Shown: positions 1-4,681, numbered from the stretch's first letter. The stretch is DNA of 32,765 bases from Cyanobacteria bacterium P01_D01_bin.156 (GCA_039024555.1 JBCCQQ010000066.1:1-32765); one strand, 5' to 3'. Numbers and translations: made by a program. The notes: generated by a model not told the origin, from the letters alone.

Positions 1-284
1 CCGGGCTGAAGGCCACACTCAAGACTTCCCCGTTATGGCCGTTGAGGGTGGCGAGTTCGGTGCCATTTCGATCCCAGAGTTTGACGCTGTTGTCGAAACT
101 GCCGGAGGCAATGGTGTTTCCGTCCGGGCTGAAGGCCACACTCAAGACTTCCCCGTTATGGCCGTTGAGGGTGGCGAGTTCGGTGCCATTTCGATCCCAG
201 AGTTTGACGCTGTTGTCGCTACTGCCGGAGGCAATGGTGTTTCCGTCCGGGCTGAAGGCCACACTATAGACTGACCCGTTATGG
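1..284. repeat. 123-bp near-identical tandem repeats encoding 41-aa WD40 units
   Basis: 1-123 vs 124-246 differ at only 2 nt; 247-284 is a further partial copy with 4 differences. Confidence 0.97.
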
Positions 285-2185
285 GACTTAAAGCGGTTTT
301 GTTCCCTAAAAGAAGTCGATGATTGTAACGTAAAATCCTTATCTGAATAAGCAACCTGCTGGAGTGCTGCTAATGCTGCCGGTTTTGTACCAGTATTGTT
401 GCTTACCTCAACGGACGTTGCTGCTTTTAATGCTGTGATCATGGACTCCATTGGTTTCTCGGCCAACAGCAAAGCCTTGGACTGTGCCCATAACGCTTGC
501 ACCGTTGCGATTTCAGTTTGTTTTTCGGCCCGTGCTCGCTGATTATTCGCCTCGGCTTCCCTGGTCTTTGCAAGTTGTGCGGCGGTGGCCTCCGCTAACT
601 GCGCTGCTTCTGCGGCCTTTCTCTGCTGCGCTTCTGCGGTTCTCGCTACTTCCGCCAGGGCAGTTTGTTCCCGTGCTGCTGCTTCATTTTGCAAGGCAAT
701 GGCTTCTTGCTTTTTTGCCTCTTCAGCGTTGGTCAGAGCCTTTTCTGCTTCTGCTTGAGCCCTTCTTTCCTGTCTCAATGCTTCTTGTGCGCTAGTCCTC
801 GCGTCCTGTGCATTTTGGTCAGCTTCCTTAGCCTTGGCTTCAGCTAATAGTTCTTGCTCTTTGGCTTGTTCTGCATTTTGCGTAGCTACAAACGTCTGAT
901 ACTCAGCTTCCCGTGACTGCGCCAATGCATAGATACTCAACGGTACCGCCACCAGCGTCGCCGCTGCTAAAGCACCAATCAGTACGCGCTGCCTTTGCAA
1001 TCGCTTGACCCAATTCACCGGCAGGTGTTCCTTCACCCACCCCTCATCAAACACCTGTCGATAAATCCCATTACTCACATGCAGCGACCCTTTACCCTCA
1101 TTCCGCCGCACTATCCCCGCCAGCTTCAAATGAGACTTTATCAGCGACTGTTCCTCATCTAGCACCAGCTCCCGCTCTCGCCAAATCTCTCCATACGTCG
1201 TCAACACCTCATACACCGTCTTATTCTCATCCGGTGTCCGCTTGACCAACATATCTCGCACAAACAACAAGTTGTTATCATTACGCACACCTGCCCGCAA
1301 AAACAAATCCTCCACCAGCCGCTCCACCGCCGCAGCACTCCACTCTGTACGGCTACTCTCCACCACCCCCTGACACAACCGCTGCGTCAAATACGGGTGC
1401 CCCCCAGTCCACTGCATCACCCAATACAAAATCTCCTGAGCCTTCCCCCTTTCCCCTTTCCCAAGCCGTGAGGCACCTTCTTCTTCCCCCGCCGCAGGCG
1501 CTTCCCCTGCCGCAGGCACTTCCCCTTTCCCCTCTAATCCCGCCGCAAACCCCTGCGCCTCTTCCCAACTAAAATCCGTTAAATCTACCCGACGCCCCAC
1601 ATTAAACGGTGTCCGCTGCGGATCTCGAATTAAGTCCCCCGGCGACGCCACCCCAATCAACACCACCGACAGCCTGCCCAGCTGTTCCTTCTGCGCCCGC
1701 GCCGTATAAAAATACCGAATCGCAATAAAAAAGTCGTCTGTAAACTCTAAACTCAGCGTTGTATCAATCTCATCTACAAACAACACAATCCGCCCATCGA
1801 CTTCGCTCAGCAAAATCTCCTCAAAAAAGCGCGTCAGCCGCTGAGTTACCCCCAGATGATTATGCTCCTCCCACCAGTCAAAAATATCCGTATCGAGCAT
1901 CAAGCTCTCATCAATCTCGGTAAGCAATCCCAGGTACCACTGCTCCGGTGTCACCGTTGTTCCAATCTTCGTAAGGTCAATAATCACCGAGGTAATATCT
2001 TCCTCTTCCAAACGTTGTGCCGTTTGTACCATCAGGCTAGACTTACCCATCTGCCGAGAAGTCAACACATAGGCAAACTGACCGTCACGACAAAGCTGCA
2101 AGAGTTCATCGTCAGCCTTACGAGAGAGGTATATGCCTCCACCTGCCTGTACAGTTCCGCCAGTGGTATAGATCGAACCTGCCAT
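1..2185 (-). CDS. AAA_35 (STAND-like) NTPase - TM helix - coiled coil - WD40 repeat protein, 3' part beyond window
   Basis: Manual translation from ATG 2185 (GAGG upstream): MAGSIYTTGGTVQAGGGIYLSRKADDEL..., Walker A TSRQMGKS, Walker B VLFVDEID, TPFNVG, WTGGHPYLTQ; hydrophobic VLIGALAAATLVAVPLSIYALA (~919-985); Ala/Glu/Gln/Lys-rich helical stalk; WD40 units HNGxVxSVAFSPDGNTIASGSxDNSVKLWD. The frame stays open to the window edge, which is presumably why the ORF track omits it. Confidence 0.92.
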   Translation of the reverse strand, partial: MAGSIYTTGGTVQAGGGIYLSRKADDELLQLCRDGQFAYVLTSRQMGKSSLMVQTAQRLEEEDITSVIIDLTKIGTTVTPEQWYLGLLTEIDESLMLDTDIFDWWEEHNHLGVTQRLTRFFEEILLSEVDGRIVLFVDEIDTTLSLEFTDDFFIAIRYFYTARAQKEQLGRLSVVLIGVASPGDLIRDPQRTPFNVGRRVDLTDFSWEEAQGFAAGLEGKGEVPAAGEAPAAGEEEGASRLGKGERGKAQEILYWVMQWTGGHPYLTQRLCQGVVESSRTEWSAAAVERLVEDLFLRAGVRNDNNLLFVRDMLVKRTPDENKTVYEVLTTYGEIWRERELVLDEEQSLIKSHLKLAGIVRRNEGKGSLHVSNGIYRQVFDEGWVKEHLPVNWVKRLQRQRVLIGALAAATLVAVPLSIYALAQSREAEYQTFVATQNAEQAKEQELLAEAKAKEADQNAQDARTSAQEALRQERRAQAEAEKALTNAEEAKKQEAIALQNEAAAREQTALAEVARTAEAQQRKAAEAAQLAEATAAQLAKTREAEANNQRARAEKQTEIATVQALWAQSKALLLAEKPMESMITALKAATSVEVSNNTGTKPAALAALQQVAYSDKDFTLQSSTSFREQNRFKSHNGSVYSVAFSPDGNTIASGSSDNSVKLWDRNGTELATLNGHNGEVLSVAFSPDGNTIASGSFDNSVKLWDRNGTELATLNGHNGEVLSVAFSP

Positions 2186-2250
2186 GGTCAAAACACCTCA
2201 CACACCTGGTTATTGCCTAGAACTACAATCCTTATCTGCCACAAAGAGAT

Positions 2251-2446
2251 ACCCTCATCCCGTCCTGGGAGGGGCCACGGGGTGGGTTCCCACGCAATTG
2301 TCCCCATGCAAAATTCTTAGCGTGAAAGTATGTCCCACAAAGTCCTCCCCTTAATAAGGGGAGGTGCCGTAGGCGGAGGGGTCTTCGAGCACTAGCGCAA
2401 GTTTTCCAGACCCCTCCCTGACGGTTCCCCTTCGTAAGGGGAACCA
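2251..2446. repeat. GC-rich hairpin short dispersed repeats between the two STAND genes
   Basis: ctccccttaataaggggag...ggaggggtc (~2345-2383) and its inverted relative gacccctcc...ttccccttcgtaaggggaacc (~2409-2445); a related GC-rich element at ~2251-2290. Confidence 0.7.
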
Positions 2447-2497
2447 GATATTGCCAAGCCTCAAAAAAACATCGAATGCTCTGCCACAGGTCTCGCA

Positions 2498-4681
2498 TCA
2501 GCTCAAATGCTCCTCAAAATAATCTGCATATAGCTGACACCTGGGGAAAACACTCTGCCCATCCCGCAAAACTAGCCCTGCTCCATGCAACCGAAAATAT
2601 ATAACCTCGTCATCGCAAGCCTGGTCCTTTAGAATCCGTAAAAATGCTTTCACCAGTTCCTTGTTGCCATACATGCGAAACAGGTGATACTTCAAATGAT
2701 CGCCAAAGGGGCCACTCTCTTCCTGAGCTTCTGAAAATAATTGCTTTGCCGTCATGCGATCGCTAGCCACCAAATACAGCGCCTTGCGCACTAAATAGGG
2801 ATGCCCATTCACCAGTTGCATCAGTCGCTGTTCTTCTACTGCACTCAGGGGCGAACCATGACATTCATTGAGCTGATGCACCTGCTGCGCATCAAAGTCC
2901 TGCAGCCGTAAATTCTCTCCGACATTAAACGGTGACTGATTTAGATCCGCGATTAGCTGATACGGTTCTGTTGATGTGACAAATGTGAGGTCCAGCCGCT
3001 TCCAAATCTTTTTGGTGGCCCGCTGATTGTGCCAACTGCGCAACATACTAAAAAAGTCATTGCGAAAGGGGGTGTCAAAAATACGTTCCACCTCATCCAT
3101 TGCCAACACCAGCGGCTGCTCCAGATTTTTAAGGATGTGTCTGCCCACATAGCGAGTACATCGCTGTGGATTGCCCAGGTTCTTTTTCCAGTAGGCTTCC
3201 ACTTCATCATCCATATCCAGCTCATCCGTTAGCCAAAAGCAAAACTGCTGGTAGAACTCATCGGCATCTTGTAATGCGGCCCGGTCAAATAGTTGAAAAT
3301 CCAGAAAGGCAACCTGCTTACCCGCTGCGACGGCGGCTTCCATAATCCGATTGAGTAATGAGCTTTTGCCCATTTGCCGGGGACCTTTGATGGTCATGGT
3401 CACCCCCTGCTGCTGAATCACATTCAGCGCAATCTGGTCACAGTGTCGCTCGATGTAAAAGTCGGAGGCCGTGTCCATGGTGCCTTCGGGCAGCTCTAGC
3501 TTGGCAGGAGCTTTGTTTATCGGTTGGGCCACCGGTAACGGTTGCGGAATTTTTGGTTGAGGCGGTGTTTGAACGATCTCTGCTTTCCGTCGCCCATCGA
3601 TGGAGAGCACTCCCCCGGCAATGGCCTGCTCCAGCTCTGCAATCAAACCGGGGGTATCGGCCTCGCTATCCCACAGCGCCCAGTTAATCGGGTTTAAATA
3701 AACGCTCAACGGATGCTGAAAGGGTTCTCGATAAGCTAGTCGCACTGGCAAAATCCGAGGCTTGCCACCGTTATCCTCAGCAATTTTATGGGCCAGCTCA
3801 ATTTCTTGTAGCACCATTTCGCTATGGACCGACTGGGCCGACAGCAGAACGATTAGCGCATCTGCCTGGCGAATTTCGTTTTCAATGCGTTCTACCCAAT
3901 GGGTCCCCACCAGCATCTGCTGATCGATAAACACTGAATTATTTTGTCCAAGGTCTGCATGCAGCTGTAATGCCACGGTCTCATCGGTGGCCATATTGCG
4001 CTTGTAGCTGATAAAGACCCGCTGTTGCCCCAGGTCAGTGGCCCCTTCCCGCCCCCTAAATCCCCCACCAGTGGGGGACTTTGCATCCCTAACCCTGTAG
4101 CTTTTATTTTCTTCTTCCCTTTGTCCCTTTACCCTTAAAACCGGAATATCTTCTTCCGAAATACCCTCTGCCCCAATCCCCACCAAACCAAATTCAAAAG
4201 CATCGGCATAGCTACGGCCATACCCCAGCCCGTCGTAAAAACCTTCTGCAAACTTAATCGATGCTTGATCGCCAATGGCATCGGTCATGCCAATCACATG
4301 ATCCACATGTTCTAAAATGGCATCGGCCTGAGCCCCAGAATGGCAAGCATTTAGAAGCACGCATTCCACACCGCCACACAGCCGAAATATACGGGTGAGG
4401 GTAGCGGTACTAATCAACTTAGCCACACCGTTTTTATCCTCAAAGGCCAGACCCCGATTCCCCATGCCATGGCCTGAAAAATGAACAATTTGAGGCTTAT
4501 GGTGCAGCAGATGCCGGTGCAGCTCATTCGTGCGGATAGCTTGCTCATCCACGATTTCAAACCGTGCCCGTTCATCGGATAGTTTTAGGGCTTCTTTAAT
4601 CTGACGAATTTCTTCATCCAGACGCAGCTTGGTGGTGTCCTTTGGATTAACTGCCAAGATCAAAATTTTTCGGGAATCCAT
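2498..4681 (-). CDS. CHAT (caspase-HetF) protease - TIR - AAA_35 NTPase fusion
   Basis: CHAT motifs IVHFSGHG and VLLNACHS (His/Cys dyad intact); TIR motifs RVFISYKR, VFID, ADALIVLLS..SVHSEMVLQEIELA; AAA_35 motifs FYIERH, GPRQMGKS, LVLAMDE, SPFNVG, GHPYLVR. Confidence 0.9.
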   Translation of the reverse strand: MDSRKILILAVNPKDTTKLRLDEEIRQIKEALKLSDERARFEIVDEQAIRTNELHRHLLHHKPQIVHFSGHGMGNRGLAFEDKNGVAKLISTATLTRIFRLCGGVECVLLNACHSGAQADAILEHVDHVIGMTDAIGDQASIKFAEGFYDGLGYGRSYADAFEFGLVGIGAEGISEEDIPVLRVKGQREEENKSYRVRDAKSPTGGGFRGREGATDLGQQRVFISYKRNMATDETVALQLHADLGQNNSVFIDQQMLVGTHWVERIENEIRQADALIVLLSAQSVHSEMVLQEIELAHKIAEDNGGKPRILPVRLAYREPFQHPLSVYLNPINWALWDSEADTPGLIAELEQAIAGGVLSIDGRRKAEIVQTPPQPKIPQPLPVAQPINKAPAKLELPEGTMDTASDFYIERHCDQIALNVIQQQGVTMTIKGPRQMGKSSLLNRIMEAAVAAGKQVAFLDFQLFDRAALQDADEFYQQFCFWLTDELDMDDEVEAYWKKNLGNPQRCTRYVGRHILKNLEQPLVLAMDEVERIFDTPFRNDFFSMLRSWHNQRATKKIWKRLDLTFVTSTEPYQLIADLNQSPFNVGENLRLQDFDAQQVHQLNECHGSPLSAVEEQRLMQLVNGHPYLVRKALYLVASDRMTAKQLFSEAQEESGPFGDHLKYHLFRMYGNKELVKAFLRILKDQACDDEVIYFRLHGAGLVLRDGQSVFPRCQLYADYFEEHLS

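Follow-up and report, generated by a model that had tools for sequence, protein, structure and literature searches.

The window analyzed here is contig C66 at its full length of 32,765 nucleotides (GCA_039024555.1 JBCCQQ010000066.1:1-32765), part of the 6.6-Mb genome of Cyanobacteria bacterium P01_D01_bin.156. Two adjacent genes on its minus strand, named A and B hereafter, each encode an ATPase module of the AAA_35 family (PF14516). A adds CHAT and TIR domains, and B adds a hydrophobic helix, a stalk, and WD40 repeats. The close relatives are Leptothoe-type cyanobacteria, with A 90% identical. Sequence comparisons indicate that the AAA_35 A/B pair is real and widespread, a putative two-subunit transmembrane (TM) STAND module. 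It seems reasonably probable that A and B act as the subunits of a single TM switch, in which a ligand at the outside sensor would turn on the enzymes of A.

Two sister ATPases encoded side by side

Both open reading frames (ORFs) are borne out on the minus strand (Table 1), and the Pfam matches agree with a preliminary description of the window, which had proposed two adjacent, co-oriented AAA_35 genes with complementary architectures. The A chain stops three residues past its AAA_35 domain, which scores 388.5 bits against the Pfam gathering cut-off of 27, and has no sensor repeats. In the CHAT domain, His71 and Cys113 appear to form an intact protease dyad; the His-Cys dyad is present in 26/26 CHAT domains on A-type proteins. 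The nearest solved chain is 8tl0_A (E 3.9e-10), which we take to be a filament-activated SAVED-CHAT protease and which would fit activation by oligomerization. Glu293 in the TIR domain, presumably catalytic from its position in the motif, is the residue expected of an enzymatic TIR, and this Glu is kept in 89/105 aligned TIRs, the exceptions belonging mostly to one subfamily. The best match of this TIR to solved sequences is no better than E 0.014. The catalytic residues of A thus look intact, as first described.

In the window, B comprises 728 residues and is open at the contig end. Its AAA_35-like region begins at residue 10 (Pfam E 1.3e-28, 100.3 bits, cut-off 27). The start in the ATPase, the single TM helix, the stalk, and the WD40 repeats reported in the preliminary description are all found in this incomplete gene, but the degenerate Walker A motif claimed there is not, as explained below.

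Profiles of the A and B ATPases are homologous along their whole length (probability 100, E 2.5e-39, 24% identity), and the two types form separate clades with a support of 1.0. AAA_35 matches every alignment member of both sets (41/41 A and 36/36 B). ATPase_2 matches are weak (9/41 and 9/36), and nSTAND1 (PF20703) matches 0/77 of these domains at E <= 0.01, though the model does work on a neighboring gene in locus L063. The model of the A ATPase, with a predicted local distance difference test score (pLDDT) of 92.7, is closest to 2qen (Z 20.2, root mean square deviation (rmsd) 4.0, 301 aligned) and 2fna (Z 20.1, rmsd 3.9, 293 aligned). For the B model, Foldseek ranks 2qen best and also finds 2fna, Orc1/Cdc6, and CED-4. 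The nearest folds of both modules are archaeal PABY2304 (2qen) and SSO1545 (2fna), which we take to be MNS-clade proteins, followed by plant NLRs, CED-4, Orc1/Cdc6, and MalT. Whole-module matches to 2qen, 2fna, plant NLRs, and CED-4 give Z of 15.8-20.2, with identity to 2qen and 2fna of 9-14%, and this fold rank is no phylogeny. The G-x-P motif is found in 131/132 A-type and 105/105 B-type domains. Both ATPases are, as modeled, STAND modules, which agrees with the earlier assignment.

The first position of the Walker A motif should be noted. It is Thr in 49, Asn in 43, Ser in 7, and Ala in 5 of the 105 B-type domains and Gly in none, and it is Ala (71/132) or Gly in the A type. GK[ST] is present in 132/132 A and 105/105 B, the Walker B Asp and Glu occur in 130 and 126 of the 132 A-type domains, and Asp-Glu is found in 105/105 B. 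Across this sample, the unusual Walker A of B reads as a signature of the B family, not as decay. The candidate role of B as a pseudo-ATPase is ruled out by the invariant GK[ST] and Walker B, and both ATPases are probably active. Both subunits also have an invariant Arg, and a second Arg is found in 78/105 B where A has Gln. A role as arginine fingers was considered for these residues, whose placement depends on an A-B complex.

A neighborhood survey confirms the conserved pairing with swapped effectors that the preliminary description anticipated. Among 100 A-anchored loci, B lies within 1.2 kb downstream in 81 and elsewhere in the locus in 4; the locus ends too soon in 7, and B is absent in 8. 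In a census of 11 genomes, where AAA_35 matches were typed by score after 17 weak matches below 65 bits were dropped and one split A was merged, a partner lies within 10 kb for 41/49 A (0.9 expected) and 45/51 B. The A/B counts per genome are close (10/10, 7/8, 7/7, 5/7, 6/6, 4/5, and 3/3). The window genome contains A and B in six copies each, every A adjoining a B, plus one broken B. The trees of A and B agree over 98 pairs (Mantel r 0.88), and 29 supported splits, of 50 and 47, are common to both. B starts -11 to +15 bases from the A stop in 38/68 scored pairs, A ends within 30 residues past the ATPase in 124/125, and B begins within 60 residues before it in 95/99. In L175, L176, L177, and L178, between two and four B-TM-WD40 genes in tandem adjoin a single A gene, mostly one carrying an HTH-type domain.

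The named pairs belong to cyanobacteria, Pyrinomonadaceae, and Anaerolineae. B is found in 84/251 genomes of the phylum, and one family of 107 lacks it altogether. AAA_35 is found in 126/140 genomes of the order and in 0/14 controls, in line with the earlier remark that such proteins are common in cyanobacteria. B relatives occur on 45 plasmid records, a count that covers B matches and not A-B adjacency.

The strongest pointer to a physical partnership of A and B comes from fusions in both orders. Both modules are present in 12/22 long A relatives, seven of which are trypsin-TIR-A-B chains from several sources, with a TM helix above threshold in six of the seven. Among the best 120 long B relatives, 27 contain both modules and 14 of these are bare B-A chains of approximately 710-730 residues; the ranking favors multi-domain matches, and these counts are not frequencies. 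Linkers in the fusions are as short as approximately eight residues. The bare B-A fusions of approximately 710 residues would be ready-made constructs for structure work.

Three further loci are of note. A complete TIR-A / B-TM-TPR pair stands on a contig of a viral collection (L144:5445-9022), the only viral-contig locus. In L063:1-4320, an nSTAND1-pentapeptide gene takes the place of B behind a truncated A gene. A more divergent pair in L192:4148-10197 consists of a trypsin plus ATPase_2-like STAND gene and then a B-like STAND fused to NB-ARC.

Sensor topology and exchangeable domains

On the Kyte-Doolittle (KD) scale, the segment next best to the hydrophobic 19-mer of B (Table 1) reaches 1.19. 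A helix with KD >= 1.6 follows the ATPase in 59/72 B proteins, and Lys/Arg residues are more numerous before the helix than after it in 45 B proteins, the reverse being found in 3. A hydrophobic helix at KD >= 1.9 is found in 0/126 A-type proteins. The helix is present (KD 1.7-2.8) in B proteins carrying CHASE2, Peripla_BP_6, PASTA, PEGA, GH25, RskA_C, or PG_binding, and absent (KD 0.2-1.5) in those leading directly into a kinase, HisKA, FHA, or T2SSE ATPase. A two-Cys tail ends 8/14 complete WD40-type B proteins as well as the B of the window, and fits an oxidizing compartment. An outward-facing sensor of B, suggested in the preliminary description as an extracytoplasmic propeller, is well supported by these predicted features.

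The sensor side evolves faster than the ATPase. The stalk is 37-61% identical to those of WD40-type orthologues, against 86-91% identity in their B ATPase. The WD40 repeats are homogenized within genes (0.93 in the window versus 0.65-0.78 to orthologues). In a comparison of seven arrays, variation is highest at three positions per repeat, with ratios of nonsynonymous to synonymous differences (pN/pS) of 1.24, 0.88, and 1.26, against 0.89 at a neighboring position and <=0.4 at most others; these ratios carry no correction and derive from pairs that are not independent, and the statistic is a crude one. We assume that the variable positions are the top-face binding positions of WD40 propellers.

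Both ends of the pair are exchangeable. Outputs on A include TIR, CHAT, caspase C14, trypsin, kinase, calcineurin-like phosphoesterase, class III cyclase, ParA, EAD4, EAD7, bDLD1, and an HTH_VMAP-M9-like domain (feature score 0.92). TIR is present in 80/100 A-anchored loci, a sample biased to the query. Inputs on B include WD40, TPR, HEAT, LRR, NHL, FGE, CHASE2, Peripla_BP_6, PASTA, PEGA, GH25, RskA_C, PG_binding, and GAF, and some B proteins carry a kinase or HisKA. In 3/16 pairs at the orthologous locus, B has CHASE2 instead of WD40, and in one of these A is 90% identical. Three of the six pairs in the window genome have an HTH-type domain in place of a death effector. Orphan HTH-type A genes adjoin PatG/PatA-type cyanobactin protease genes (L181:5150-9179 and L182:5292-10620), which suggests a transcriptional role for them.

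The proposed switch and competing explanations

We infer the A-B complex, its topology, the order of activation, the ligand, and the biological role as follows. B would be a single-pass receptor whose ATPase faces the cytoplasm and whose stalk and WD40 propeller lie outside the membrane, most likely in the periplasm, with the thylakoid lumen also conceivable. A would be a soluble cytoplasmic output subunit. On the outside, B would bind a ligand or cluster and thereby drive formation of an ATP-dependent A/B oligomer, which would gather and switch on the oligomerization-dependent CHAT protease and TIR NADase of A. The output of the window copy would most likely be a conflict response, that is, growth arrest or death of a cell in the filament, triggered by a foreign or damaged surface structure rather than by phage proteins in the cytoplasm. 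A conflict function of this copy is favored because of its effector types and the turnover of the sensor. The sensor/helper reading of the preliminary description, with its putative hetero-oligomer and immune role, finds partial support in the co-occurrence, the STAND fold, the outward sensor, and the fusions, but not in its view of B as a degenerate ATPase.

Several observations weigh against such a switch. No partner is found within 10 kb for 8/49 A and 6/51 B in the census, most orphan A genes being HTH-type or similar. Tandem full B domains occur in 53 of the best 120 long B relatives; from these tandem proteins, B-B contacts are likely too and the A/B stoichiometry need not be 1:1, an alternating A/B ring being one candidate arrangement. 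The TM helix is absent in 13/72 B proteins, one B has GAF domains after the hydrophobic stretch, and two have CHAT after the TM helix. Linked genes would have agreeing trees even without binding, so the tree agreement speaks for long linkage only. Among the neighbors, scanned without a control set, 12/123 match any PADLOC model, mostly generic kinases, ATPases, and small proteins, and no restriction, CRISPR, or CBASS family is found among the 124 other neighbors. These are mainly housekeeping genes with some transposases and toxin-antitoxin genes; they were taken as the longest non-overlapping ORFs, some of which are spurious. Classical anti-phage defence receives little support from these neighbors.

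Somewhat unlikely, but the strongest competitor, is that the same A/B receptor complex serves non-lethal signaling, for instance in envelope stress, surface contact, or filament development, with the TIR making a messenger or acting as a scaffold and CHAT cleaving a regulator. The HTH_VMAP-M9-like, Ser/Thr kinase, and class III cyclase outputs on A point in this direction, as do the small-molecule binders CHASE2 and Peripla_BP_6 among the B sensors, the one TIR subfamily lacking the Glu (16/105), the housekeeping surroundings of the loci, and the spread of AAA_35 through nearly the whole order. From the HTH, kinase, and cyclase outputs, the module would also serve plain signaling; the HTH-type pairs, together with neighbors that form no defence island, suggest a general signaling device of which the window pair is a conflict-type copy. 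However, TIR predominates in the query-biased loci together with the conflict-typical EAD4, EAD7, bDLD1, caspase, and trypsin, and an arms race would account for the homogenized, hypervariable WD40 arrays and the rapid exchange of sensors.

Strict Avs-type anti-phage defence, in which B would recognize a phage structure (e.g., during adsorption or injection) and A would abort the infection, is unlikely. The pair shares its STAND fold with Avs and NLRs, the TIR resembles defence TIR models (PADLOC E 1.5e-8; Thoeris ThcB4 below cut-off), and the plasmid records with B relatives would suit such a function. Contrarily, the scanned neighbors offer no defence-island context, there is no full match to any PADLOC STAND system, the sensor sits behind a TM helix, and the ligands of many B sensors are small molecules or cell-wall material. 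It is quite improbable that A and B are linked paralogues acting separately as homo-oligomers, or that the helix is not transmembrane and the propeller cytoplasmic, since the orphan A and B genes, the tandem B-B proteins, and the B proteins lacking a TM helix are outweighed by the fusions in both orders with their short linkers, the balanced A/B copy numbers, and a helix whose presence follows the location of the downstream domain.

If the TM switch is real, a split, membrane-spanning STAND with two seemingly active ATPases, present in several copies per cyanobacterial genome and equipped with sensor arrays and freely combined sensors and outputs, would be a bacterial counterpart of sensor/helper NLR networks, one directed at the cell surface. 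The caspase-like proteases and TIR domains for which a part in cyanobacterial cell death has long been suspected would gain a concrete trigger, and thousands of proteins labeled only "AAA-like domain-containing protein" would be given a testable role. More tentatively, and on balance doubtfully, AAA_35 A/B pairs might form a widespread, unrecognized class of TM signaling, a STAND counterpart of two-component systems built on a hetero-oligomeric ATPase ring with several receptors per output. In such a class, outward receptors with diversifying WD40 propellers or other binding domains would switch exchangeable cytoplasmic outputs (TIR, caspase-like or trypsin protease, kinase, cyclase, or HTH), and filamentous bacteria would have a form of innate immunity, or of self/non-self recognition, based on surface receptors.

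Related systems and local context of the pair

Literature searches, with most subscription journals outside their coverage, gave no description of an AAA_35 A/B pair or of a receptor/output split. The accessible portions of Kaur 2020 (PMC7159879) and its two supplements contain neither Npun nor MNS, and those of Dore 2024 (PMC10907252), PMC8283722, and PMC7475262 hold nothing on the pair. An MNS-clade Npun2340/2341 family is named with citation of Leipe 2004 in the portions available of Kaur 2021 (PMC8195603), where the MNS-Npun2340 label in supplement file 1 covers single-gene TPR-GreAB-PIN proteins. Judging from its consecutive Nostoc locus numbers, that family may be an adjacent pair too, and the AAA_35 A/B pair may correspond to the family given the name Npun2340/2341 in 2004.

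In the nSTAND2 system, as far as the accessible portions describe it, two STAND genes share an operon; their products are predicted to assemble into a toroidal hetero-multimer, and the effectors, carried by one of the partners, vary (Kaur, Iyer, Burroughs, Aravind 2021, PMC8195603). The AAA_35 pair likewise consists of two adjacent STAND genes. In nSTAND2, one STAND has eroded NTP-binding motifs and GT4 or HEPN (same portions), whereas AAA_35 A and B both keep GK[ST] and Walker B, and neither GT4 nor HEPN is found among the A/B segments scanned. The AAA_35 effectors also differ in being N-terminal TIR, proteases, or HTH, with a predicted membrane receptor as the partner.

In NAIP/NLRC4 and in plant paired or networked NLRs, sensor and output lie on separate STAND chains. 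The AAA_35 pair is similar in that B starts without an effector (95/99), A has the output (124/125), and up to four B genes stand by one A. Unlike those systems, A has no repeat domain, B would cross the membrane, and the modules are MNS-like and not NACHT/NB-ARC; the relation is one of analogy, not membership. To our knowledge, characterized bacterial STAND immune proteins are single cytoplasmic chains.

Avs and bacterial NACHT proteins are described, in the accessible portions of Lee et al. 2026 (PMC13581612), as single tripartite cytoplasmic chains sensing phage proteins. They share with the pair a STAND switch, TIR or protease effectors, and repeat sensors. In the pair, however, the effector-STAND-sensor order is split over two genes with a TM helix, and the rare fused forms contain two ATPases. 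Within those portions, AAA_35, PF14516, Npun, and CHASE2 are not found in the seven supplements, nor AAA_35 in the text; an MNS clade is in the tree of 589 clades, and AAA_35 proteins may be among them unnamed. The nSTAND1-TM-WD40 proteins also have a cytoplasmic STAND, one TM helix, and an outward WD40, but a different ATPase family. Fungal HNWD (HET-D/E) and bacterial NLRs have homogenized WD40 arrays or internally conserved repeats with few hypervariable positions, according to the accessible portions of Dyrka et al. 2020 (10.1101/2020.01.06.895854). The B arrays are alike in both respects. Those receptors differ in being cytoplasmic NACHT/NB-ARC proteins, and their two-gene forms, in the same portions, link via amyloid motifs and not via a second STAND.

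Table 1. Positions of the features of genes A and B and of the gap between them in the window
Feature	Position	Strand	Basis
Gene A, putative output subunit: CHAT-TIR-AAA_35 (A type), 727 aa, predicted soluble	2498..4681	-	ORF, Pfam, no TM
Short CHAT (caspase-like) protease domain, His71/Cys113	4193..4675	-	Pfam CHAT E 5e-10; residues 24-161
TIR_2 domain, Glu293	3650..4018	-	Pfam E 1.5e-19; residues 222-336
Predicted A-type STAND ATPase module, Lys439 / Asp529-Glu530 / Arg548	2510..3493	-	AAA_35 E 2.6e-116, residues 397-724
Gene B, putative receptor subunit: AAA_35 (B type)-TM-stalk-WD40, cut by contig end	2..2185	-	Tail at C1:415729-415978
Predicted B-type STAND ATPase module, Lys48 / Asp138-Glu139 / Arg157	1022..2173	-	Model pLDDT 86.2, Foldseek, profile comparison
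Predicted single TM helix (hydrophobic 19-mer), residues 401-419, preceded by basic residues	929..985	-	KD 2.16
Ala/Glu/Gln-rich helical stalk, 208 aa, fast-evolving	302..925	-	Identity to WD40-type orthologues
Near-identical 123-bp WD40 repeats (collapsed array), three variable positions per repeat	1..298	-	Repeat comparison
Genome-wide repeated element in A-B gap, outside the system	2335..2465		Approximately 40 blastn matches in genome, depth spike

Two copies of the 123-bp repeat are identical at 121/123 bases. The last repeat and C-terminal tail of B are found at the end of contig C1, with 79/79 bases identical to window positions 65-143, and this join is supported by the matching gene order in Leptothoe kymatousa (B, UbiA, and the nicotinate phosphoribosyltransferase NAPRTase). 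Complete WD40-type orthologues have approximately 14 repeats (L047), and shorter ones may be collapsed assemblies. A contig from the sequencing run extends 1092 letters past window position 188 and has 3 bases inserted at that point, so the true array may not match the assembled repeats. One DNA run and no RNA run is listed as containing the window stretch; the read depth from it sums over organisms and gives no repeat copy number.

The gap between A and B is 312 bases in the window genome and contains the repeated element, so the two genes would not be translationally coupled there. Relatives have DUF29 or IVP genes in the corresponding gap. A promoter and terminator scan gave no excess over shuffles.

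A second CHAT-TIR-A / B-TM-WD40 pair of the genome (C70:1-4741 and C91:17300-19295) is likewise broken inside a near-identical repeat array, and C91 holds approximately a dozen further repeats of it, variable at the same positions as the window array. A broken B-type gene at C42:55247-56113 lacks the P-loop part. Just past the C-terminal end of B (C1:410288-413691), a nicotinate phosphoribosyltransferase gene, so labeled from Pfam on the L044 orthologue (L044:12143-14699), lies approximately 3 kb downstream, adjoined by what is presumably a NadD-like gene; these NAD salvage genes may stand beside the TIR pair by chance. A stand-alone CHAT-TIR gene at C56:28971-30140 resembles the N-terminal half of A, next to a gene that we take to be vWA-like.

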